From a virus, in IMG/VR virus record IMGVR_UViG_3300048997_000046, positions 1 through 45,533 of that record: a DNA stretch of 45,533 nt; one strand, 5' to 3'. The translations under genes were made by a program, and so were the position numbers. Within the stretch, counting starts at the first letter, position 1. The number at the start of each line of letters is the position of its first letter. The notes below the pieces were generated by a model. The model worked only from the letters and a program-made list of their open reading frames with translations, searched no databases and was not told the DNA's origin. This document shows positions 7,573 through 45,533 of the stretch, one piece after another.

Positions 7573-7884
7573 ATGCCAGCAGAATCCATGATCGAGCGAA
7601 TTGCCAAAGCCATGTGGGAGAGAACCCATGATGGCGTGTGGCCTGATACGGCGGAAGCTGACGCTACGGAGTGTGTGACCGCCGATGGGAAACCGGCGAA
7701 GCTGACGACCGCAGATATTTACCGGGAAGATGCCCGCGCCGCTATCCCAGCCATGATGCCAACTCAAGCCGAATGCGAGGCGTTGGCAGAGCATTTCGAA
7801 AATGGCGAAACGCGCGGACATTGGACGCAGGTACGCTCACTATTCAAGGCGCACATCGACTCCGCGCTCAAGGAAGGGGAGTAG
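7573..7884 (+). CDS. Hypothetical protein, 103 aa
   Basis: Internal ATG of ORF 7549..7884 with an upstream GGAAGGA. Confidence 0.55.
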   Translation: MPAESMIERIAKAMWERTHDGVWPDTAEADATECVTADGKPAKLTTADIYREDARAAIPAMMPTQAECEALAEHFENGETRGHWTQVRSLFKAHIDSALKEGE

Positions 7885-7888
7885 GGGG

Positions 7889-9112
7889 ATGGCTGACTTC
7901 ATTTTTCATCAAGCCGTTGGCGAAGCGCCAATTAAGACTTGGACCAAGGGCGTCCAGATCGAAGATCAGGCGATGGCGCAGCTTCACAACGTCGCCAAGC
8001 TGCCGTTCATTCACAAGCACGTTGCGGCCATGCCGGACGTGCATTGGGGCATGGGCGCAACCATCGGCAGCGTGATCGCCACGAAAGGTGCCGTCGTGCC
8101 TGCCGCCGTAGGTGTGGACATCGGCTGCGGAATGATGGCGATGCTGACCACGCTTAAAGCCGAACACCTACCGGACAATCTACATCAAACGCGGCTAGAC
8201 ATCGAGTCCGCCGTGCCGCATGGGCGCACGGACAATGGTGGCGCAAACGACCGCGGCGCGTGGGGCGAGCTGCCACCAGAGGCGGAGAACCGTTGGCAAC
8301 CGCTTGCGGAACGATACGCGGCCATTCTCGCCAAACATCCGAAGGCCAAGGCATATAATTCAGCCCGCCATATCGGAACGCTCGGAACTGGCAATCACTT
8401 CATCGAACTCTGCCTCGATGAAAGCGATTTCGTATGGGTGATGCTGCACTCCGGCTCGCGCGGCGCTGGCAACAAGATCGGCATGTACTTCATCGAAAAG
8501 GCCAAGGAGGAAATGCGCCGGTACTTCATCGATAAATTCCTACCGGATCAGGACTTGGCTTATCTGGTGGATCATACCGAACTGTTCGATGACTACGTGA
8601 ACGCCGTGGAATGGGCGCAGGACTTCGCGCTGGAAAACCGCAAGGCAATGATGCACGCCACACTGAACGCGGTACGCAAGTCGCTGCCGCCGTTCTTCGT
8701 GACGGACATGGCTGTGAACTGCCATCACAACTATATCTCGCGAGAGAACCACTTTGGCACGAATGTGCTGGTGACGCGCAAGGGCGCTGTTCGTGCGCGA
8801 AAAGGCGACCTTGGCATCATTCCCGGCTCGATGGGCACCGGCAGCTTCATCGTGCGCGGCAAGGGTAATCACGAGAGCTTCCACTCCTGCTCGCACGGTG
8901 CCGGCCGCGCTATGTCGCGCGGCGCCGCAAAGAAAGCGATCAGCATGGAACAGCACGCCGCCGCCATGAAGGGCATCGAAGCGAGGCTGGATGCCGATGT
9001 GATCGATGAAAGTCCAGCGGCGTACAAAGACATTGGCGCCGTCATGGCCGCGCAGTCAGACCTTGTGGATGTCGTTCACCGGCTCCGGCAAGTCGTGAAT
9101 GTGAAGGGCTAA
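7889..9112 (+). CDS. rtcB: RNA 3'-phosphate/5'-OH ligase RtcB
   Basis: Motifs MPDVHWGMGATIG, GVDIGCGM, GTLGTGNHFIEL, HSGSRGAGN, NCHHNY and SHGAGR are all present in canonical order. 407 aa from ATG 7889. Confidence 0.9.
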   Translation: MADFIFHQAVGEAPIKTWTKGVQIEDQAMAQLHNVAKLPFIHKHVAAMPDVHWGMGATIGSVIATKGAVVPAAVGVDIGCGMMAMLTTLKAEHLPDNLHQTRLDIESAVPHGRTDNGGANDRGAWGELPPEAENRWQPLAERYAAILAKHPKAKAYNSARHIGTLGTGNHFIELCLDESDFVWVMLHSGSRGAGNKIGMYFIEKAKEEMRRYFIDKFLPDQDLAYLVDHTELFDDYVNAVEWAQDFALENRKAMMHATLNAVRKSLPPFFVTDMAVNCHHNYISRENHFGTNVLVTRKGAVRARKGDLGIIPGSMGTGSFIVRGKGNHESFHSCSHGAGRAMSRGAAKKAISMEQHAAAMKGIEARLDADVIDESPAAYKDIGAVMAAQSDLVDVVHRLRQVVNVKG

Positions 9113-12037: not shown

Positions 12038-13756
12038 CTAGAAATACGTCACGACAATCGCGTAGCCGTCGCCGCCCTTACCACCCGCCCCGCCGATATT
12101 CGTGCTCGTCGCCGCGGCGCCCGCAGCCCCGCCGCCGCCACCGCCGCCGCCACGCTGCCCACCGTCACCACCCTTGCCGCCGGTTCCATTGGCAGTCGTA
12201 TTCGCGCCGCCGCCGCCGCCACCAGCGCCGCCCCAAGCTTCTGCACCAGCCGCACCTGCGGTTCCGGCAGTCGGGGATGTTCCGCTCGTACCGCGCGCGC
12301 CGCCCGTGCGCGATGTTGCCGAGGCAAGCTCGTAGATGTGCGCGCCGCCGCCATCTCCGGCTGAGTTCGATTGTGTGCCGTTTCCTGCACTGACGGACCC
12401 ACCTGCTCCACCGGCAGCACCGCCCCACATGGAGCTGCCGCCACAACCTTGTCCTCCTAAGCCGCTGTTACTGTCGGACCCACCGGCACCGCCGCCAAAC
12501 TCCGCTGCGTGACCTGTATTGCTAGCATTTCCACTGCCTGCTCCGGCTCCGCCGCAAGCTTCCGCGTTGCTGACAGCACCGGGGCCACCACCGGCAAGAG
12601 CGCTAGAACCTCCTACGGCACCTGGCGCGCCCGAACCGCCGCCTGAACCACCTGCGCGGGCCGTGGTAGCACCCAACCCGCCGCCGCCGCCGGCATAGCC
12701 GGTAAGGTGTGCTCCGAATGTTGTATTGCCCCCGGTCGAGCCGACTGAACCCGTGGCGTTAGAACCGCCTGCGCCACCCGTGCCACCGGCCCCGATTGTG
12801 ACAGTCTCAGATGAGCCGAGATCGGAAGCGTTAAATTCTTGAATGATACAGGCCCCGCCGCCGCCACCACTTCCGCCAAGATTTGAAGTGCTATTACCGC
12901 CTGCGCCTCCTCCTCCGCCGCCTCCGGGGCCCCAAAGGATCACCTTTACGCGGGTCGCATTGGTCGGCTTGTTCCATGTGTTCGCGCCGGCCGCGCTGTA
13001 GGTATTGACCTGCACAGCTCCTGCGAAGCCGCCGCTCGCGCTACCCCATTGTGGATTGGCGCCCGCACCTTGCGTAACAAGCACCTGTCCGTTTGTGCCG
13101 GGAGCGAGTGCGGCCCACGCGGACGAACCGCGATAGAGAATGTCGCCCCGTGTACTGCCGATGCGATCCAGCGTTCCATCGGTATAGGTTTCGGCAGCCG
13201 CCAACGTGGCGGCATCGCCAGAATCCGCATATGCCTCAGCCGTTACGAGCGCCGTAGCAGCCGCGCCCGCCGCATCGAACGATGCCGAACTCAGTCCGCC
13301 ATCTTTGAGCAGCTTGCCGGTCGTACCATCGAATTGCGCAAGGTCGCCATTGGTCGAACTGGCTGGCCCGACAACATCGCCTGAACCGCCGCCCGCCGCT
13401 GAGATAACGCCGCTCGTTTCCGTGATGGTGCTGCCATCGACCTTGTAGATGCCAAATTGGGTAGCCGATCCGATCTGAACCGCAGGTGCAGCATCAGAGC
13501 GCATGAAAGTGAGGGCGCTACCGGGGACCGCTGCATCGCTGGCCGTGGCCGTGGGATCGGCACCCACAGGCGGCGGCAGATTACCGAACGCGCCTCCGCT
13601 TGTTGCTTGGCCCGTGCCGACAAGCGGCTTCAGATGCGCGGCGAGTTCACGGAATGAAAGCCGATGCGGTGCGCCCATTCCGTTGCGGGTGCGGCCGATA
13701 ACCTCGAATTGCGCAAGCTGATCGCGGATGCCGCGGATTTTGTCGGATGCGCTCAC
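12038..13756 (-). CDS. Glycine-rich tail fibre protein
   Basis: 572 aa. TWNKPTNATRVKVILWGPGGGGGGG is followed by about 300 aa of Gly-rich sequence ending in GDGYAIVVTYF. GTGA coupling to the upstream gene. Confidence 0.7.
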   Translation of the reverse strand: MSASDKIRGIRDQLAQFEVIGRTRNGMGAPHRLSFRELAAHLKPLVGTGQATSGGAFGNLPPPVGADPTATASDAAVPGSALTFMRSDAAPAVQIGSATQFGIYKVDGSTITETSGVISAAGGGSGDVVGPASSTNGDLAQFDGTTGKLLKDGGLSSASFDAAGAAATALVTAEAYADSGDAATLAAAETYTDGTLDRIGSTRGDILYRGSSAWAALAPGTNGQVLVTQGAGANPQWGSASGGFAGAVQVNTYSAAGANTWNKPTNATRVKVILWGPGGGGGGGAGGNSTSNLGGSGGGGGACIIQEFNASDLGSSETVTIGAGGTGGAGGSNATGSVGSTGGNTTFGAHLTGYAGGGGGLGATTARAGGSGGGSGAPGAVGGSSALAGGGPGAVSNAEACGGAGAGSGNASNTGHAAEFGGGAGGSDSNSGLGGQGCGGSSMWGGAAGGAGGSVSAGNGTQSNSAGDGGGAHIYELASATSRTGGARGTSGTSPTAGTAGAAGAEAWGGAGGGGGGANTTANGTGGKGGDGGQRGGGGGGGGAAGAAATSTNIGGAGGKGGDGYAIVVTYF

Positions 13757-29182: not shown

Positions 29183-29433
29183 GGATGGTCCTTTTCTGCT
29201 GCAATGAGGTACATTTGTTCCGGCGTCAGATGAATCGCGCGTTCAATGCGAAGCCATACCTGTCGCCTGCCCTCGCGGATCGCCATTTTCTGAGGGCTTT
29301 CATCCACTGCGGTCGTGCGAGACGCGCAGCAAAATTCATGAAGATCGGCCAGCACGTTCTTTCCGGCCGGCGAGCCGAAACAGAACTGGAAATTCCGCCT
29401 GCGGCGCTGGAAAAAGTCCAGAATCTCTTTCAT
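29179..29433 (-). CDS. Small conserved head-module protein, 84 aa (possibly Bbp19-like)
   Basis: ATGA coupling to both portal and scaffold. FGSPAGKNVLADL...REGRRQVWLRI pattern. Confidence 0.5.
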   Translation of the reverse strand: MKEILDFFQRRRRNFQFCFGSPAGKNVLADLHEFCCASRTTAVDESPQKMAIREGRRQVWLRIERAIHLTPEQMYLIAAEKDHP

Positions 29434-31148
29434 GCGGCCTGTGCTTGCGGTTGACCGATCTGCCCGCCTGCCTTCTTCACGGCGGCTTGGGCCTTAATTA
29501 TCGCGGCCTGCGCGGGAAGTGCTTGCACCTGCTGTTCGGCCTGTTTGGCCTGCGCGCGTTGCTGGCGAACCTGTGCAATTGCATCTGCCGAACGCATCCA
29601 GCTTTCCGGCACGTCCTGAATGCGCGCGATTTCCGGAATCGCCACATCGAAGTCGAAGGGATCGAGCACGGACGGATCTTGCATCTGACCGGCGACTTCC
29701 AGTGCCGTTTCCACCGTGCGCAGGAAACCAGATGCTTCACCGGCTCGCGCCGCCTTGAATAGCGGCGAGGTATAGACGACCTTGTATTCGCCCTTGGCCT
29801 CGCGAAGGACCGGCGGCATCGGGTCCAGCAACTTCAACCGCACCGCAAGATCAATCTCGCGGTCGATCATTGGCTCCAGATAATCGGATGCCATACCACC
29901 AACCAGCGGTGCGAGAAATACGCCCTTCTGGTTGATAAGCTCGATGACCTGCGTGGCGGTCATGTTCGGGTTTTCAACAAGGGTCTGGAAGATGGTGGTA
30001 AACGACACCTCGCCAATGAGGGCGCGTTCCTCATCCATCATTTCCTTGGTGATCTGGATTTTTCCCATCTCCAGCGGGATCACGAGCGGCTTGCCGTCAG
30101 CGCTCACGCCGCCCTTCATTTCGGAGCCGGGAATGAGCGTAAAGTCGGAAATGCCGTCGTCCGGCGTCAGAAGAATTGGATCAGCGGAACGATGTCCCGA
30201 CTTGAGGAAGGTTGCCTTCTCCGCGTTAAGGGTCTTGAGCGCCGGCAGCACATCCATCATTGGGCCGCGGCCGTAGATTTCGTTTGGGCCCTGCGCATAG
30301 CGGGCGAACGGCAGCGGGAAGCTGTAATATCCCGCATCGGGATCGTTCATCAGCCGGCGGCCGGTACACGAAACGTAGTGCGAGCAGAATGGCTTCGAAC
30401 CGCGCCCCAGCTTCTCCGCAGGGTCGTATTCACCATTCGGATAGACGCAGTGGAAGAAATCGAAAAGCTGTTCACTGTCCTTGTCCTGCGCGTCATCCAG
30501 CGCATCGGGCAACATATCGTGGCCCCACTTCTGCATCGCCTGCCGCGCTGTCATGCGGTAGGGGCGCACGAACGCGTCCACCTGGCCTTGATGATTGGTT
30601 CGAATGTAGACTTCGCCTAGCGGCAGAGCAGCGTAGCGGAAGCCGCGAACGGGATTACCGTGCATGTCGTATAATTGATCGACAAACATGGGGCCGTTGC
30701 CGAAAGCGCCAACCTGGTAGAAAATGCTCTGGTTCTGCTTGCGGAAATTCGCAGCCGACATATAGCGGGTTCGGAAGAGAACGTTCGAAGCCTTCTCCAT
30801 CCAAAGCCGGACCTGCCGATTTTTCTGCACATACGGCTCGGAGGCTTCTAGGTTGTGCCACTTCGATGAAAACGGCGTCAGCATGGAGTCGCAGATGGCC
30901 GCGAACTTCATCAGCGCGACCATGCCGGTGGCATCGATCTGCTTGTCCGTCTTTTTCGTGCCGGGAAAATTGTAGCTTTCGCGATAGAAGGTGTTGCGCA
31001 TACTTGGATAGACGAGTTGCGCCACTTCCTCCCATTGGCCTGCGAAATTCACCCGGTAGAGGTTAGACTGCACATGAATGCGGTACACAGAGTCTACGAT
31101 TTCGACTTCGCGTTGTGTCGGCTCCGGCCGCGCTGCGATCTGTCGCAT
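29430..31148 (-). CDS. Portal (head-tail connector) protein, podovirus type
   Basis: 572 aa immediately after TerL and a small ORF. YGRGPMMDVLPALKTLN resembles the T7 gp8 SYGRSYIEEYLGDLRSLE region. Confidence 0.8.
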   Translation of the reverse strand: MRQIAARPEPTQREVEIVDSVYRIHVQSNLYRVNFAGQWEEVAQLVYPSMRNTFYRESYNFPGTKKTDKQIDATGMVALMKFAAICDSMLTPFSSKWHNLEASEPYVQKNRQVRLWMEKASNVLFRTRYMSAANFRKQNQSIFYQVGAFGNGPMFVDQLYDMHGNPVRGFRYAALPLGEVYIRTNHQGQVDAFVRPYRMTARQAMQKWGHDMLPDALDDAQDKDSEQLFDFFHCVYPNGEYDPAEKLGRGSKPFCSHYVSCTGRRLMNDPDAGYYSFPLPFARYAQGPNEIYGRGPMMDVLPALKTLNAEKATFLKSGHRSADPILLTPDDGISDFTLIPGSEMKGGVSADGKPLVIPLEMGKIQITKEMMDEERALIGEVSFTTIFQTLVENPNMTATQVIELINQKGVFLAPLVGGMASDYLEPMIDREIDLAVRLKLLDPMPPVLREAKGEYKVVYTSPLFKAARAGEASGFLRTVETALEVAGQMQDPSVLDPFDFDVAIPEIARIQDVPESWMRSADAIAQVRQQRAQAKQAEQQVQALPAQAAIIKAQAAVKKAGGQIGQPQAQAA

Positions 31149-31397: not shown

Positions 31398-32882
31398 TCA
31401 GATGCCCCAGTGCTCGCCTTCCACGCCCTGCGCAATCCGCACAGGTGCGTTTGAGGTAGAGCTATAGCCCCTCGCACCGCTCACCCTGGCAAACCGCTTT
31501 GCCATGACGCCGATGCGGGAAGCGGACATGAGGTCGTCCTGCAGCTTCACGATCATGCCGTCCTTGCGGTGGTAAATCCGGAATTCCTCCCACCAGTCCT
31601 TCAAATGCCGCGCGACTTTGAACCGCCCCGTCGTCATGCGGTCGTACATCTCCTGCACGCCCGCTTCGGTGGAGATCGAGCCATCCGGCCACGTCGCGTG
31701 GCCCGGCAGCATCTTCAATCCCTCTTCTTTGTAGAAGCGGGCGAGAGGTGTTCCTGAACCAGCATCGCGATTGGTGCCATCTCGCGGCCACGCCACCGGA
31801 ATATCCGTGCCGTAGCCCTTCATGGCCTTGGCGTGGTCTATCGGCCGCGCATCGCGCATTCGAAAGCCGTGGAGGATATGCAGGCAGTCGGCGTCCTTGT
31901 CCCACGCATACAGCACGGCAGCGAACGGATGCCCGATGCCAAAGTCTATCGCCCAAAGCTTCGGCCAGTAGCCGGGAGGGCTGAACGCATCCTCTGCAAT
32001 CGCTTCCTCCGGAACGGGGAATATCCGGCCGGAGCCAAGCATGGGCACGCCCCGGGACCGCGCTTCGCGTTCATGGGCAGGATAGCCAGCAATGATGCGC
32101 TGGCGCTCCGCCGCGCCACCCGGGAAGTGGGTATCGGGAACATCGTCAATGGTCATCGTGACCATGCCGCGGTCATCGCTGGGCTCGTTCATAAAGCGGC
32201 CAACGACCGCACTCATGCCTTTCATTGGCGTGAGCGTCAGAAACCCGAAACCACCGGTGGCCGTGATGCGCGTTAGCATCTCTCCGTAAATGTCCATCGG
32301 CGGTTCTTCGTCGCCCCAAAACCAATCCAGCGTCTCACCCTGGAACTTGGTCCGCCCCTGCTCATAGGATTTGAAGCGTGCGACCGAGATTCCGCCCGAC
32401 ACATGGCGGACCTGAATGGTGTCGTAGGCATCGGTAATGCCGCGAGCGAGAGAGGGCTTGTCGGTAAAGCATTCCTTCGGGATCATGCCAGTGCCGAAGG
32501 CGGATTCCACCCCGGGTTCACCACAGAGCTTCTTTTGCTGCACGTCCCGGGCCAGCGATGACGTTTCGCCAACGACCCAGCCGCGATTCGGTTTATCCAG
32601 TTTGCGCCCCTGCCAGTTTGGCGGGTACATCCCGGTCATGTGGCAGGCGACCGTGAAAGCACCGGTTTCCGTTTTTCCCAATTGATTGCCGGCGAGAAAC
32701 AGCGTCTCGCGCATTTTGGCAGTGAGGGCGATGAATTCTTGTTGCTTGGGATAGGGTTCGAAGAAATCGAGGACGCGGAATTTCCGGCGCCGCTCTATCT
32801 CCTTCAGGATTTTGCGAAGCTCGCGTTCCTTGGCCGGGTCCATTTCCGGCTTAGAGGAAGCGTCAGCTTTTTTGGGTGGCAT
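31398..32882 (-). CDS. terL: Terminase large subunit
   Basis: Walker A LAGNQLGKTETG. 494 aa, upstream of the portal. Confidence 0.85.
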   Translation of the reverse strand: MPPKKADASSKPEMDPAKERELRKILKEIERRRKFRVLDFFEPYPKQQEFIALTAKMRETLFLAGNQLGKTETGAFTVACHMTGMYPPNWQGRKLDKPNRGWVVGETSSLARDVQQKKLCGEPGVESAFGTGMIPKECFTDKPSLARGITDAYDTIQVRHVSGGISVARFKSYEQGRTKFQGETLDWFWGDEEPPMDIYGEMLTRITATGGFGFLTLTPMKGMSAVVGRFMNEPSDDRGMVTMTIDDVPDTHFPGGAAERQRIIAGYPAHEREARSRGVPMLGSGRIFPVPEEAIAEDAFSPPGYWPKLWAIDFGIGHPFAAVLYAWDKDADCLHILHGFRMRDARPIDHAKAMKGYGTDIPVAWPRDGTNRDAGSGTPLARFYKEEGLKMLPGHATWPDGSISTEAGVQEMYDRMTTGRFKVARHLKDWWEEFRIYHRKDGMIVKLQDDLMSASRIGVMAKRFARVSGARGYSSTSNAPVRIAQGVEGEHWGI

Positions 32883-42367: not shown

Positions 42368-42600
42368 GCGGCGGCTTGTTGTTTTTGGTTAGGAATGTGA
42401 GCCGGTTTGGGGGGCGCGTAGCCACGAATGAAGGCGCGAACTTTATCAACGGTGGCGAGCGTCAGCCCTCCGCCTTCCCGTAACCGTGTCACAAATTTTC
42501 CGTCGTTCACGGCCAATCGGCCGAACGTGGATTCGGTCATTTGCACTTCACGGCGCGCAAGGAACGCCTCGATCTCAACGAGAAGTTCTTGTGTGGTCAT
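42364..42600 (-). CDS. cro: Cro-like early regulator
   Basis: Divergent from the repressor across the operator region. First gene after the TTGACA-17-CATATT promoter. Confidence 0.6.
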   Translation of the reverse strand: MTTQELLVEIEAFLARREVQMTESTFGRLAVNDGKFVTRLREGGGLTLATVDKVRAFIRGYAPPKPAHIPNQKQQAAA

Positions 42601-42607
42601 GCTGGCG

Positions 42608-42684
42608 AATATGATGGGCTATTGCCCAAGTGTCAATGGGCTATTGCCCAAGTGACTATCATGCTTCCAGTGGGCAATGTCCCA
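42608..42684. promoter_or_regulatory. Immunity operator/promoter region: three operators plus a rightward (minus-strand) promoter
   Basis: TGGGCTATTGCCCA at 42615..42628 and 42637..42650 (22-bp phasing), and the variant TGGGCAATGTCCCA at 42671..42684. Minus-strand -35 TTGACA at 42631..42636 and -10 CATATT at 42608..42613. Confidence 0.7.
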
Positions 42685-42687
42685 CTC

Positions 42688-43368
42688 ATGAAACTCGACT
42701 GGCGAGAGCGGCTCAAAAGGGCGATTGAGCGGAAACAAACGACCATGAAGGCGCTGTCTAAGGGTGCCGGATTGGGCGAAACCTACGTTCGGGACATTCT
42801 TGAGCGGGACCGTGATCCGTCTGTGGAAAATGCAAAGCGGCTCTGCGCCACCCTCAATACTTCATATGAATCGATCTTCGGCGAGGGGCCGCTAGAAGAT
42901 CAGATGCCCCCTATGCGCGGGAACATCTTTGAATTTGGTGGTATCGAATACGCGCGAATCCCAGTCTATGACATCAGGTTTGCGGCCGGCACCGGAAATG
43001 TGGAGGAAGGCGATGAAGAACCCATTGACCATTATCTGGTCAGCATGAACACCCTTCGCGCTGCAACGGACGCCCCGCTAACGCAGCTAGCAATTTTTCA
43101 AGCCCACGGCGATTCCATGAAGGAGACTATCAACGGCGGGGATTGGGTTTTCGTGGATCGCCGGAAAACTAATCTCCGAATCCCTGGAATCTATGCCCTG
43201 ACCGTAGACGGCGAGAGGCTCCTGAAGCGTGGTCACCAGCATCTTGAAACCGGCGTTGTGACCTTGATTTCGGACAACACGGCCTATGAGCCGCGACGGC
43301 AAACAATTAAGCACCCAGAAAGGCTTAACATCATCGGCCGCGTCTTTTTGTCAATCCGGCGCCATTAG
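42688..43368 (+). CDS. cI: CI-like repressor (XRE HTH + S24 LexA-type autopeptidase)
   Basis: HTH MKALSKGAGLGETYVRDIL, Ser motif HGDSM and Lys motif LLKRG. An alternative start is 42661. No Shine-Dalgarno before either start. Confidence 0.85.
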   Translation: MKLDWRERLKRAIERKQTTMKALSKGAGLGETYVRDILERDRDPSVENAKRLCATLNTSYESIFGEGPLEDQMPPMRGNIFEFGGIEYARIPVYDIRFAAGTGNVEEGDEEPIDHYLVSMNTLRAATDAPLTQLAIFQAHGDSMKETINGGDWVFVDRRKTNLRIPGIYALTVDGERLLKRGHQHLETGVVTLISDNTAYEPRRQTIKHPERLNIIGRVFLSIRRH

Positions 43369-43677
43369 CATTCTGCGGTGCCGAGCCCGGATAACGGGAG
43401 CCCATGCGTAGCTTGCTGCCGTGAGAACTATTGCAATCACCAATGGCCACGAGAAGAACAGGATGGCAGGAACCAGCTCCCATCCCCAAACTACATGGGC
43501 CCCGTATATGCCAGCTATTCCGCCAAGCAGCGGAACCCATGTCAAGACAAACGCTAGCGAATATCCTACGAAGTGCGGTACTCCCAAAAAATAGGAGAAC
43601 CCGTCACCTATAGCAAACCATTGGAATAGGCCCATTAGAAAATATCCAATGCCTAGCAATACTCGCAGCGCACCCAT
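43351..43677 (-). CDS. Polytopic membrane protein, 108 aa (moron)
   Basis: Three to four hydrophobic spans. AAGGAG RBS. Visibly AT-richer DNA than the flanks. Confidence 0.6.
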   Translation of the reverse strand: MGALRVLLGIGYFLMGLFQWFAIGDGFSYFLGVPHFVGYSLAFVLTWVPLLGGIAGIYGAHVVWGWELVPAILFFSWPLVIAIVLTAASYAWAPVIRARHRRMLMAPD

Positions 43678-43690
43678 AATTCATGGCTCC

Positions 43691-43897
43691 TTATTGGTCT
43701 TTGCAATCCACTGGTCCATGTTGGTCTTGTTGAAATAACGGGAGGCAGGCGGTCACCGAGCCGGTCACCCTGTCCAGCCGAAATACCAAGCTGTTTTCGC
43801 CCGCCGCGACGATCTCATACCGGCCAGTGAAAAAGATCGCGCAGGCAATCACGCCAGCGGCAATCAAGATCGACACAGAGAGTGTTTGGTCGTGCAT
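43691..43897 (-). CDS. Signal-anchored small protein, 68 aa (moron)
   Basis: N-terminal TM SVSILIAAGVIACAIFF, same AT-rich block, co-oriented with 43351..43677. Confidence 0.5.
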   Translation of the reverse strand: MHDQTLSVSILIAAGVIACAIFFTGRYEIVAAGENSLVFRLDRVTGSVTACLPLFQQDQHGPVDCKDQ

Positions 43898-43939
43898 GGC
43901 GCACGTATCGTAAGCGCCGCTGGGTTACCGAAGATGAAA

Positions 43940-43982
43940 TGGGATATTGCCCATTGACAGGTGGGCTATTGCCCATTACCTT
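43940..43982 (+). promoter_or_regulatory. Early-left promoter with two operators
   Basis: TGGGATATTGCCCA at 43940..43953 and TGGGCTATTGCCCA at 43962..43975 (22-bp phasing). -35 TTGACA at 43954..43959 and -10 TACCTT at 43977..43982. Same architecture as the 42.6-kb promoter. Confidence 0.65.
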
Positions 43983-43992
43983 CCCCCTCACA

Positions 43993-44026
43993 CCACCCAT
44001 CAAGGGTGCTGCTGATGGAGGAACGA
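43993..44026 (+). promoter_or_regulatory. Conserved box, copy a: ccacccatcaagggtgctgctgatggaggaacga-ATG
   Basis: CACCC-ATCAA-GGGTG hairpin a few nt downstream of the predicted early-left transcription start. Confidence 0.5.
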
Positions 44027-44317
44027 ATGAAAGCAAAGAACGGTGAGCGAGCGGTTCTGGTTACGACCGCGCACCGGGGCGTGTTCTTTGGATACGCAAC
44101 CGAAACAGATGGCGCGATGGTGAAGCTACGCGCTGCCCGCAACTGCATCTACTGGCCTACGGAGAACAAGGGTTTCCTTGGCCTTGCGAGTACGGGGCCT
44201 GTCAGCGGTGCGAAAGTCGGCCCTGCTGCCGACATTGAATTACGTGACATCACATGCGTTGCAACGTGTACGGATGAAGCGGTCGAGCGCTGGGAAAAAG
44301 CACCGTGGGCGCGCTGA
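44027..44317 (+). CDS. First early-left gene, 96 aa, conserved hypothetical
   Basis: ATG 44027 lies 5 nt after GGAGGA. Internal start of ORF 43961..44317. Confidence 0.6.
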   Translation: MKAKNGERAVLVTTAHRGVFFGYATETDGAMVKLRAARNCIYWPTENKGFLGLASTGPVSGAKVGPAADIELRDITCVATCTDEAVERWEKAPWAR

Positions 44318-44970
44318 TCGTTCGCGGCGAGATTCCTAACGGCTACGGCTCCGGCTACGGCTACGGCTCCGGCGACGGCTACGGCTACGGCTACGGCTAC
44401 GGCTACGGCTCCGGCTACGGCGACGGCTACGGCTACGGCGACGGCTACGGCTACGGCTACGGCTCCGGCTACGGCTACGGCTACGGCTACGGCTACGGCT
44501 CCGGCTCCGGCTACGGCGACGGCTACGGCTACGGCTACGGCTCCGGCTACGGCGACGGCTACGGCTCCGGCTACGGCTACGGCTCCGGCTCCGGCTACGG
44601 CGACGGCTACGGCTACGGCTCCAAAGAATACTGGCTCGGATGCATCGAGTATTTTTCCGAGAAATGGCCTGAGCCGCAGCGCGAACATCTGGCACGGGCG
44701 CGCGATCTCGGTTTGCCGCTCGCGTACTGGCGAAGCAACAAACGCGGTTGCGCCTGCAATGGCGGGCAAAACAATCCTGTATCGCCGGGAACAATCGAAA
44801 CAACTCCGGGACCACTTGATCTGTGTTCTCGCGGAACGCTGCACGCAACGCTGATTCCGCCCAAGTGGAAAGGCGAACGATGGTGGATCGTCGCGCTTCA
44901 CGGCGAAGTTGTCGGCGACGAAGAAAAGTACGGCTGCCTCAAGCGTGAAATTATTGGCGAAGCAACATAA
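44305..44970 (+). CDS. Gly-Tyr dipeptide-repeat protein: (G-Y/S/D)x47 followed by a 115-aa Cys-containing globular domain
   Basis: Single open frame from GTG 44305 through the repeat into non-repetitive sequence (KEYWLGCIEYF...GTLHATLIPPKWKGERWWIVALHGE). Confidence 0.65.
   Translation: MGALIVRGEIPNGYGSGYGYGSGDGYGYGYGYGYGSGYGDGYGYGDGYGYGYGSGYGYGYGYGYGSGSGYGDGYGYGYGSGYGDGYGSGYGYGSGSGYGDGYGYGSKEYWLGCIEYFSEKWPEPQREHLARARDLGLPLAYWRSNKRGCACNGGQNNPVSPGTIETTPGPLDLCSRGTLHATLIPPKWKGERWWIVALHGEVVGDEEKYGCLKREIIGEAT
44341..44622 (+). repeat. Perfect-phase hexanucleotide microsatellite, 47 units of GGCTAC/GGCTCC/GGCGAC
   Basis: Read directly: 282 bp with no phase break. Only three unit variants, which differ at unit positions 4 or 5. 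Confidence 0.95.
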
Positions 44971-45001
44971 CCACCCATCAAGGGCGGCGGGAGACGGAAA
45001 G
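44971..45001 (+). promoter_or_regulatory. Conserved box, copy b: ccacccatcaagggcggcgggagacggaaag-ATG
   Basis: Its first 14 nt are identical to copy a and its last 20 nt nearly identical to copy c. Confidence 0.5.
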
Positions 45002-45523
45002 ATGAACGAGCGACCCAAGGTAATCCAGTTTACGGGTTCTGCGCCGCGCAATGACCATCGCTGGACTACTGATGAGCTAAAGCAACTCATCTCCATGTGG
45101 ATGGCTGGCGACGAAGTTGACAACATCGCAGTTGTATTCGGCGTCACACCGCGAGGCATCAACCGCCAGATTCAGCGGATGCGTGCCAACGGTATTTTGG
45201 TCCCGCGTCGTAAGCGTGGCCACCGCGCCGGTCGCAGCAACCAGCTTTGGACTCCAGAAGAGGTTGAATACCTCGTTCGTCGCCGGAACGAGCGCGCGTC
45301 CACCGAAGAAATCGCAAACGAACTCAACCGAACATTCAATGCCATTCAGGGCATGGTTGAAAGGCTCAAAGCAGAGGGCGTGATCGTTCGCTCATTTGGA
45401 CGCGGGAAGCATCGGCTCTGGAACGCCGAGCGGCTTCGCGACGCGATCTCTTTGCGCGGACTTAGCGACAAGGCTGAAACCGATCCATCGCGGCTTCTAA
45501 GCAATACCGGCGAAACACCATAG
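45002..45523 (+). CDS. GcrA/Myb-like DNA-binding protein with two tandem W-x-x-E-E...HTH repeats
   Basis: WTTDELKQLISMWMAGDEVDNIAVVFGVTPRGINRQIQRM and WTPEEVEYLVRRRNERASTEEIANELNRTFNAIQGMVERL resemble the GcrA N-terminal domain. Confidence 0.5.
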   Translation: MNERPKVIQFTGSAPRNDHRWTTDELKQLISMWMAGDEVDNIAVVFGVTPRGINRQIQRMRANGILVPRRKRGHRAGRSNQLWTPEEVEYLVRRRNERASTEEIANELNRTFNAIQGMVERLKAEGVIVRSFGRGKHRLWNAERLRDAISLRGLSDKAETDPSRLLSNTGETP

Positions 45524-45533
45524 CAGCCTAAGG
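45407..45533 (+). repeat. Terminal direct repeat, copy 2 (identical to 1..127)
   Basis: Base-for-base identity with 1..127. Confidence 0.97.

Follow-up and report, generated by a model that had tools for sequence, protein, structure and literature searches.

Why does a phage gene carry 47 perfect copies of a six-nucleotide unit in its reading frame, and what could the encoded protein segment be doing? The locus that raises this question lies in the IMG/VR virus record IMGVR_UViG_3300048997_000046, of which the whole 45,533-nt stretch was analysed (hereafter, the window). An earlier note, made from the sequence alone, had pointed to a hexamer microsatellite there and held it to be translated as an alternating Gly-X tract within a protein that we call the repeat protein. 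Its gene is composed as follows:

44305..44970, plus strand: gene of the repeat protein, 221 amino acids (N-motif, (Gly-X)47, C-terminal domain), GTG start, TAA stop; from the open reading frame (ORF) list and its translation
44305..44340, plus strand: short N-terminal motif (N-motif) MGALIVRGEIPN, family consensus ..[VI][IL]LRGxxP..; from the alignment of homologues
44341..44622, plus strand: coding microsatellite, 47 x 6 nt, giving (Gly-[Tyr30/Ser11/Asp6])47, an acidic low-complexity region rich in Tyr and predicted to be disordered
44623..44967, plus strand: C-terminal domain, 115 amino acids, non-repetitive, modelled as two helices and a beta-rich core with a DUF7666/RIIB-like fold

We propose, as a reasonably probable account of the whole locus, that the tract is a conserved low-complexity region that turns over by hexamers and would provide multivalent, length-tunable binding or tethering within an accessory module.

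Direct reading and a script both found 47 uninterrupted hexamers filling 44341..44622 (282 bp, the count being that of the assembled sequence). Only three hexamer types occur, GGCTAC (30 copies), GGCTCC (11 copies) and GGCGAC (6 copies); the Gly codon is GGC throughout, and the variant units each lie one base from GGCTAC (TAC>TCC or TAC>GAC). Tandem Repeats Finder likewise returned period 6, 47.0 copies and 0% indels, at 44339..44620 with a shifted register, so the structure described in the earlier note is confirmed by all three routes. Against the codon usage of the 11 long ORFs of the window (GGC 0.615, TAC 0.50, TCC 0.26, GAC 0.46), the chance of all 94 tract codons being as observed is about 1e-27, and the codon pattern is far above chance expectation. 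The longest exact repeat within the tract measures 53 nt and every 54-mer is unique, so that short-read assembly can in principle resolve it. At the protein level the tract consists of 50% Gly, 32% Tyr, 12% Ser and 6% Asp in perfect Gly-X alternation over 94 residues, and carries a net charge of -6 without any basic residue (Asp at 6 of 94 positions).

The claim that this sequence is translated and runs on into the C-terminal domain is well supported. Downstream of the in-frame stop at 44275-44277, GTG 44305 is the sole canonical start ahead of the tract, and the C-terminal part of the protein contains no Met. Further, the N-motif is kept in an alignment of 76 full-length homologues (Gly8 in at least 90% of them), the N-termini taken from the individual loci agree, and this conservation across the family backs a start codon upstream of the tract. 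The ORFs of poly-Ala-Val (44149..45162, minus strand) and poly-Arg-Ser (44336..44848, minus strand) opposite the tract are present as described and are by-products.

AlphaFold2 modelling of the full-length protein gave a predicted local distance difference test score (pLDDT) of about 40 and no secondary structure for residues 14-102, which correspond to the tract, above 90 for the C-terminal domain, and about 56 for the N-motif, whose docking on the C-terminal domain is not confident. No signal peptide was found at the MGALIVRGEIPN... N-terminus and no LPXTG at the ...REIIGEAT C-terminus. Pfam searches with the full-length protein yielded neither a Pentapeptide (PF00805) match nor Clf/Sdr-type domains. 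The matches to TrAA12 and to serine-rich proteins obtained with the full-length query in Pfam, PHROGs, PADLOC and NCBIfam were rejected as low-complexity noise, and the only sequence-profile matches in the PDB were Gly-Ser linker artefacts. In an exact look-up the repeat protein of the window was not on record, so that a close relative of this particular phage was not available for comparison.

Homologues were sought with the C-terminal 115 amino acids alone, which makes low-complexity matches impossible. In 5.8 billion clusters, 261 proteins matched with E ≤ 1e-3 (the closest 72% identical); there were also 243 clusters at 50% identity among 1.84 billion representative proteins, and 154 confirmed matches on IMG/VR viral contigs, 80 of which were fetched for the comparison of loci. 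Nearly all homologues carry the tract, at 4-67 units; the earlier note had suggested this search, and homologues lacking the tract would have spoken against it. The layout is near-universal: an N-motif region of 12-20 amino acids, the (Gly-[Tyr/Ser/Asp])n tract, and a C-terminal domain of about 115 amino acids, with the frame open from the tract into the domain at every locus examined. Among 78 non-redundant DNA tracts the number of Gly-X units ranges from 4 to 67, which makes the 47 of the window long but not extreme. Even homologues whose C-terminal domain is just 40-45% identical retain Gly/Tyr-rich N-terminal regions, of a more irregular kind. Named sources are mostly Alphaproteobacteria (Hyphomicrobium, Bradyrhizobium, Sphingomonas, Rhodobacteraceae), together with one metagenome-assembled genome labelled Planctomycetaceae. 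Judged by these sequences, the tract is the hallmark of a widespread family from uncultivated phages and prophages, mostly linked to Alphaproteobacteria.

Among 50,697 deposited phage genomes, tblastn with the C-terminal domain or with the DUF6948 protein encoded upstream of it found no match, and blastn with window positions 43900..45533 found nothing. The tract had been called unusual in an early phage protein; this stands for the deposited genomes and fails for uncultivated phage contigs, where such proteins are common (the 154 IMG/VR matches). In the literature searched we found no phage protein family defined by (Gly-[Tyr/Ser/Asp])n, and queries combining Gly-Tyr with phage gave general reviews only. 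In-frame coding microsatellites and low-complexity domains are, as such, already known kinds of feature.

How the tract evolves can be read from the codons of the 78 non-redundant tracts, which comprise 2457 units; these units are copied and hence not independent, so that nominal P values are inflated. The Gly codon departs from the dominant codon of its locus in only 13 of the 2457 units, and the X codons of one locus share their third base. Five unit types exist, GGC+NNC in 58 tracts, GGG+NNC in 13, GGC+NNT in 5, and GGT+NNC and GGG+NNT in 1 each, and they are scattered over the tree of the C-terminal domain. Lineages thus have fixed synonymous differences whereas none occur inside a tract, a footprint of repeated expansion from few founder units or of out-of-register homogenisation. 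An IMG/VR contig with two cassettes of the repeat gene and its upstream neighbour (3300048818_000025, loci L023 and L034) shows the same on a single molecule: one tract uses TAT/TCT/GAT in 38 units and the other TAC/TCC/GAC in 8 units, so the two paralogous tracts were homogenised separately. A second cassette was also found at locus L007 (7109-7662).

The choice of X codons is narrow. Their first two bases are TA (Tyr) in 971 units, TC (Ser) in 798 and GA (Asp/Glu) in 610, while the transition-derived CA and TG codons (His, Cys) total 15 of 2457, and AA plus TT (Asn, Phe/Leu) total 27. GC codons (Ala), which require a double change, were observed 21 times against 215 expected if the two positions were independent. 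That Ala is ten times rarer than expected, and that transition products are nearly absent, argues for selection on the protein to be Gly plus Tyr/Ser/Asp.

Tract length differs between close relatives. The loci L013 and L033 share 600 nt of downstream flank at 100% identity and have tracts of 126 and 192 nt; L046 and L051, likewise with a 100% identical flank, have 204 and at least 288 nt; L026 and L027 (99.3% identical) have 144 and 150 nt. Length also differs in every one of the seven protein clusters (90% identity) in which two or more complete members share an N-terminus, with unit counts such as 15/21/37, 6/9/27, 12/22 and 6/12, the last being an exact duplication of a 36-nt block. The in-frame, slippage-type length change foreseen in the earlier note thus looks real, since near-identical relatives differ in unit number. 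Taken together, the codon and length patterns point to concerted evolution by slippage under protein-level selection. A diversity-generating retroelement was considered and rejected: the variable bases are T and A on the same strand with about one outcome each, which is not adenine-specific randomisation. As a side observation, the GGG-using relatives (L013, L015, L033, L044, L054, L064, L076, L081, L093 and others) carry (GGGTAC/GGGTCC/GGGGAC)n with up to 49 units, a canonical G-quadruplex motif on the coding strand and in the mRNA that the GGC tract of the window does not have.

The repeat gene does not stand alone. It is preceded by the following gene:

44015..44317, plus strand: DUF6948 gene (PF22253, E 2.3e-23), starting at ATG 44015 or at ATG 44027 behind GGAGGA

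The GTG start of the repeat gene, the second gene of this plus-strand unit, overlaps the DUF6948 stop by 13 nt. The earlier label of "second early-left gene" is right in its rank; "early" is plausible from the position, and "left" is arbitrary. In 74 of the 76 related loci that could be judged, the gene immediately upstream of the repeat gene encodes DUF6948, and independent gene calls show overlaps of 10-13 nt, an arrangement consistent with translational coupling. Additionally, a DUF6948 match was found within 7 of 150 homologues. In database proteins such as P0234, P0242 and P0225 the first ~75 residues of DUF6948 are in frame with the last ~55 of the DUF7666-like domain; this set of fusion-type proteins, to which P0125 and P0030 also belong, includes others in which the N-terminal part of DUF6948 is fused to the tract. 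In-frame fusions of this kind lend Rosetta-stone-type support to a functional link. If the domains are truly fused, physical cooperation would be suggested; otherwise these proteins are products of recombination or chimeric assembly. Fusion-like proteins such as P0126 were set aside because they look like frameshifted gene calls. A programmed frameshift joining DUF6948 to the repeat protein was likewise rejected, as no canonical slippery heptamer was seen by eye in the 13-nt overlap.

Among 127 ORFs flanking the cassettes of related loci there was no recurrent Pfam family, so the cassette behaves as a self-contained module in variable regions; its neighbours are occasionally DNA-modification genes. 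DUF6948 had no sequence match in the PDB, and no paper mentioning DUF6948 or DUF7666 was found in the literature.

The C-terminal domain of the repeat protein (motifs WRS, NGG, GPLxLC, GTLHAT, WxGERWWIVAL and REIIGE) matched nothing in Pfam (E ≤ 0.1), PHROGs, PADLOC or NCBIfam. Its AlphaFold model, built from 52 aligned sequences, is confident (pLDDT 91, predicted template modelling score 0.85) and consists of two helices followed by a beta-rich core. A fold search of the PDB with this model gave nothing below E = 1. Foldseek against BFVD, by comparison, returned DUF7666 proteins, T4-like RIIB, phage pentapeptide-repeat proteins and giant-virus ankyrin proteins (E 4e-4 to 1e-2, prob 1.0, query TM-score (TMq) 0.5-0.62). 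For the DUF7666 models the values were E 8e-4 to 9e-2, prob 0.97-1.0, TMq 0.49-0.60 and a root-mean-square deviation of 2.7-5.6 A over 92-114 columns, the four best of them lying at 2.7-3.8 A over 92-95 columns (about 94). By these models, the C-terminal domain has the same three-dimensional fold as DUF7666. At the sequence level, PF24703 (DUF7666) was matched by 19 of 150 distant homologues, always below threshold and always on the second half of the domain; the best score (P0254, profile positions 20-89) was 24.7 bits (E 3.5e-5) against a gathering score of 27 bits, and the domain of the window itself has no Pfam match. The modelled domain is therefore DUF7666/RIIB-like in fold and not a DUF7666 member by Pfam's criterion.

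The likeness to RIIB consists of the fold match and of a Cys-x-x-Gly-Leu-His motif common to the family and to T4 RIIB (within residues 229-309), in two non-structural phage proteins whose mechanisms are not understood. RIIB acts against RexAB exclusion, and its expression is toxic (PMC10312443). An hhalign comparison of the family profile with T4 RIIB was not significant (E 0.35) and covered only RIIB 229-309; no sequence homology to RIIB over its length, its helix-turn-helix (HTH)-like N-terminal region included, was found for the window protein. T4 RIIB differs from the repeat protein in having that HTH-like N-terminus (weak HTH Pfam matches) and no Gly-X tract, and the partner gene of the repeat protein is DUF6948 rather than an rIIA-like gene. 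The modelled fold link to RIIB is a lead, not evidence.

Related domains are also joined to repetitive modules of other kinds. In 31 of 150 distant homologues the domain occurs with pentapeptide repeats that give Qnr/MfpA-type matches in NCBIfam. These phage proteins share with the repeat protein a homologous domain (phmmer E down to 1e-22), a repetitive module and phage contexts, and they also occur in isolated phages, e.g., Ralstonia phage DU_RP_II. They differ in that their domain is N-terminal and their repeat a folded beta-helix (PF00805), whereas the window protein combines a C-terminal domain with a disordered dipeptide array. Giant-virus ankyrin-DUF7666 proteins offer a similar union of a related domain with a repetitive module.

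How might these pieces fit together? In the account we propose, replication slippage or unequal recombination between hexamers would turn the tract over. Whole blocks of units would be gained or lost in frame and synonymous positions homogenised per tract, so that lineages become fixed for differing Gly codons and X-codon third bases. Selection at the protein level would keep Gly at every second position, limit X to Tyr/Ser/Asp and hold the frame open into the C-terminal domain. The resulting segment may act as a disordered, net-acidic, tyrosine-dense sticker-and-spacer region, with Tyr as stickers, Gly/Ser as spacers and Asp as solubiliser, and could bind weakly and multivalently, with length-tunable strength, to itself or to a host or phage target. 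The tract would also tether the N-motif to the C-terminal domain, which may act together with DUF6948, and the cassette would serve in host interaction as an accessory, self-contained module located in variable parts of phage genomes.

The [G/S]Y[G/S] domains of FUS and hnRNPA1 and the high-Gly-Tyr keratin-associated proteins resemble the tract in Gly/Ser/Tyr composition, few charges and predicted disorder. The phage tract differs from FUS/hnRNPA1 in its strict period of 2, its lack of Gln/Asn/Arg, its Tyr content (~32%, against roughly 12% in FUS), its prokaryotic-viral origin and its hypervariable length. On composition and predicted disorder it belongs with the prion-like low-complexity domains. 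With Ser besides its 32% Tyr and 50% Gly, and no charges other than acidic ones, the tract agrees with the sticker-and-spacer grammar of self-associating Tyr/Gly/Ser low-complexity domains, in which Tyr as sticker and Gly/Ser as spacer are the accepted grammar of condensates (PMC9748015, PMC10888811).

Several observations weigh against this proposal. Both common changes, TAC>TCC and TAC>GAC, are A:T>C:G transversions, with GCC, moderately frequent, a double transversion; mutational bias may thus contribute to the Tyr/Ser/Asp spectrum, and the composition counts are not independent, since units get copied. Tyr content is inconstant among relatives (no Tyr in L073, few in L075 and L042, only Tyr in L032), which weakens a strict requirement for Tyr stickers. 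The tract is not wildly unstable either: 6 of 9 groups of loci with identical flanks have the same tract, and the protein P0062 recurs unchanged on 10 contigs, which come from several metagenomes and an NCBI assembly. All length comparisons come from short-read metagenome assemblies, which are prone to collapse or break repeats, and such collapse could explain part of the length variation. In 17 of 93 related loci (e.g., L041, L044, L051 and L087) a contig starts or ends at or near the tract; the tract is thus a frequent assembly breakpoint, and as a result many members of the family in the databases are cut short at the N-terminus. Finally, the N-motif is not confidently placed (pLDDT 56), and the disorder of the tract is a prediction.

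The leading alternative is a passive spacer, which we think unlikely. The tract would then be a flexible linker from the N-motif to the C-terminal domain for which any hydrophilic Gly-rich sequence would do, its length and Tyr/Ser/Asp content drifting neutrally within limits set by solubility and the avoidance of stop codons. Lengths of 4-67 units with no obvious optimum, a Tyr content from 0 to ~90% among relatives and the predicted disorder would all follow, and dipeptide-repeat stalks have precedents. The Ser-Asp repeat of staphylococcal Clf/Sdr proteins varies in length between strains and forms a flexible stalk; like the tract, it is a long run of dipeptides, is encoded by short DNA units repeated in frame and adjoins a folded domain, as in the architecture of ClfB (PMC3375286). 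Those proteins differ in being secreted, cell-wall-anchored bacterial adhesins built on Ser-Asp, whereas the repeat protein has neither signal peptide nor anchor, would be cytoplasmic and is dominated by Gly-Tyr. What speaks against neutrality is the X spectrum: His, Cys, Asn, Phe and Ala lie one mutation from common codons and should be tolerable in an inert linker, yet they are 10- to 100-fold rarer than Ser/Asp. Tyr is the commonest X across the family (~40%), though a plain Gly-Ser linker would be simpler, and very distant homologues still have Gly/Tyr-rich N-terminal regions.

The possible in-frame contingency locus suggested in the earlier note fares less well in its classical sense, in which the tract would mutate very frequently within a phage population and its lengths would be phenotypes selected in turn, e.g., in an arms race with a host factor. 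We regard this as distinctly improbable. The part of the claim that stands is a perfect repeat within a gene whose copy number differs between close relatives, both at loci with identical flanks and within clusters of more than 90% identity, with a unit that is a multiple of 3 and always keeps the frame; the perfectly homogeneous synonymous sites would also imply recent repeated expansion. In these respects (a perfect short intragenic repeat, slippage, copy number differing between close relatives) the locus resembles the contingency loci of Haemophilus, Neisseria and Campylobacter. Reversible switching, ON/OFF or antigenic, is not supported. In classical contingency loci, units of 1-5 or 7 nt switch expression through frameshifts or promoter changes, whereas the 6-nt unit of the window changes only the length of a protein segment and allows no switch of expression or frame. 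Moreover, about two thirds of the identical-flank groups have identical tracts across samples, P0062 recurs on its 10 contigs, and assembly collapse could mimic part of the variation.

The resemblance to phase-separating or fibre-forming domains that the earlier note had also drawn holds for composition and predicted disorder. A period of two residues fits beta-strand geometry, and a silk- or amyloid-like fibre former would place Gly on one face of a strand and Tyr/Ser/Asp on the other and polymerise into sheets or fibrils. The strict Gly-X alternation over 94 residues is indeed that of the (Gly-Ala/Ser/Tyr)n of silk fibroin, and tract-bearing homologues match KRTAP and Keratin_2_head weakly in Pfam because of this shared composition. 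We nevertheless find a fibre very unlikely: AlphaFold2 shows no strands in the tract and low confidence (a method that is not reliable for fibre-forming low-complexity sequence), regularly spaced Asp would counter the stacking of sheets, and tracts of only 4-10 units are common. Polyglycine-II bundles, known alongside the high-Gly-Tyr keratin-associated proteins (PMC8409303), require a 3-residue period and were rejected for a tract with a 2-residue period.

Pentapeptide repeats are rigid DNA mimics in MfpA/Qnr. By analogy, the tract could be a nucleic-acid mimic or decoy whose Asp resembles phosphate and whose Tyr resembles bases, and which would occupy a host DNA- or RNA-binding protein, an idea to which we give little credence. 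The sister architectures with pentapeptide repeats in place of the Gly-X tract, the net charge of -6 without basic residues and the occasional DNA-modification genes nearby are in keeping with it. The argument is purely one of analogy, however, with Asp at just 6 of the 94 residues in the window copy. In the two pentapeptide-type loci examined, no upstream gene had a Pfam DUF6948 match; these relatives being unpaired with DUF6948, the two architectures may not share a target. A DNA-level element (origin iterons, packaging signal or G-quadruplex) or a copy-number artefact of assembly, with translation incidental, is scarcely credible: GGG relatives do form the (GGGTAC)n quadruplex motif and contigs often break at the tract, but the peptide pattern is kept while the DNA unit varies by lineage (GGC/GGG/GGT; TAC/TAT), which makes a DNA-level role unlikely, the frame is open into the C-terminal domain in all loci examined, and the 54-mers of the window tract are all unique.

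The cassette of the window lies among the following features:

42541..43368, upstream of the cassette: CI/LexA-type repressor gene (HTH_3 and Peptidase_S24)
43351-43897, minus strand, between repressor and cassette: two small ORFs of 108 amino acids (phrog_3075, a function-unknown family) and 68 amino acids
43898..44014: intergenic region of 117 nt, after which the plus-strand unit begins
45002..45523, plus strand: HTH protein gene, third gene of the plus-strand unit

Judged by their translations, the two small minus-strand ORFs look like genes of hydrophobic membrane proteins, and they occupy a position at which exclusion or immunity genes are often kept in prophages. Two 16-nt direct repeats, TGGG[A/C]TATTGCCCATT, lie 22 nt apart at 43940-43977 in the divergent intergenic region upstream of DUF6948 and look operator-like; a simple scan found no sigma-70 consensus promoter in this region. 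An exact 15-nt direct repeat, ACCACCCATCAAGGG, occurs in only two copies in the window (43992-44006 and 44970-44984), which are 978 nt apart and bracket the DUF6948 and repeat-gene cassette. The first copy precedes the candidate starts 44015/44027 by 9-21 nt; the second precedes 45002 by 18 nt. A hairpin of 5 bp and a pentaloop can form in the first copy (CACCC-AUCAA-GGGUG, -8.7 kcal/mol, z -2.2), whereas folding of the second is weaker. The repeat could be a regulatory site, at the RNA or DNA level, that both positions share (boxB-like?), or else a scar left when the cassette was inserted.

Elsewhere in the window, PHROG matches assigned 29430..31148 to a portal/head-tail connector and 31398..32882 to a terminase large subunit, and they also recognised tail proteins and an RtcB-like ligase. 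Portals of an uncultured phage and of Ralstonia podoviruses share 41-48% identity with that of the window. The RtcB-type RNA ligase gene lies at 7802-9112 (phrog_1075, E 6e-144); phage genes of this type are usually linked to the repair of tRNA cut by host anticodon nucleases. A second short tandem repeat, CCGCCGCCACCG (2.8 copies, 12110-12153), lies in a tail-fibre-assembly-like ORF (12038..13756, minus strand).

Whatever its exact role, the array joins three linked behaviours: perfect synonymous homogeneity within each genome, codon differences between lineages, and length differences between near-identical phages. It thereby offers a clean natural case of DNA evolving in concert while selection acts on amino-acid composition. 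The two-gene cassette (DUF6948 plus DUF7666/RIIB-like), which occurs commonly in uncultivated phages and in none of the 50,697 deposited phage genomes searched, connects two domains of unknown function with each other and, through the modelled fold, with RIIB, whose mechanism has been unclear for decades. The pair of DUF6948 and the repeat protein might be a new, widespread counter-defence or exclusion module with an RIIB-related fold, in which the tract engages a target or forms condensates and a slippage "accordion" retunes its valence and length in an arms race with the host. We rate this extended reading as improbable; if true, a virus would possess an analogue of a contingency locus that acts on protein length. 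And if the tract drives condensates or target capture, it would provide a simple, naturally length-tunable system for studying sticker-and-spacer rules in bacteria.

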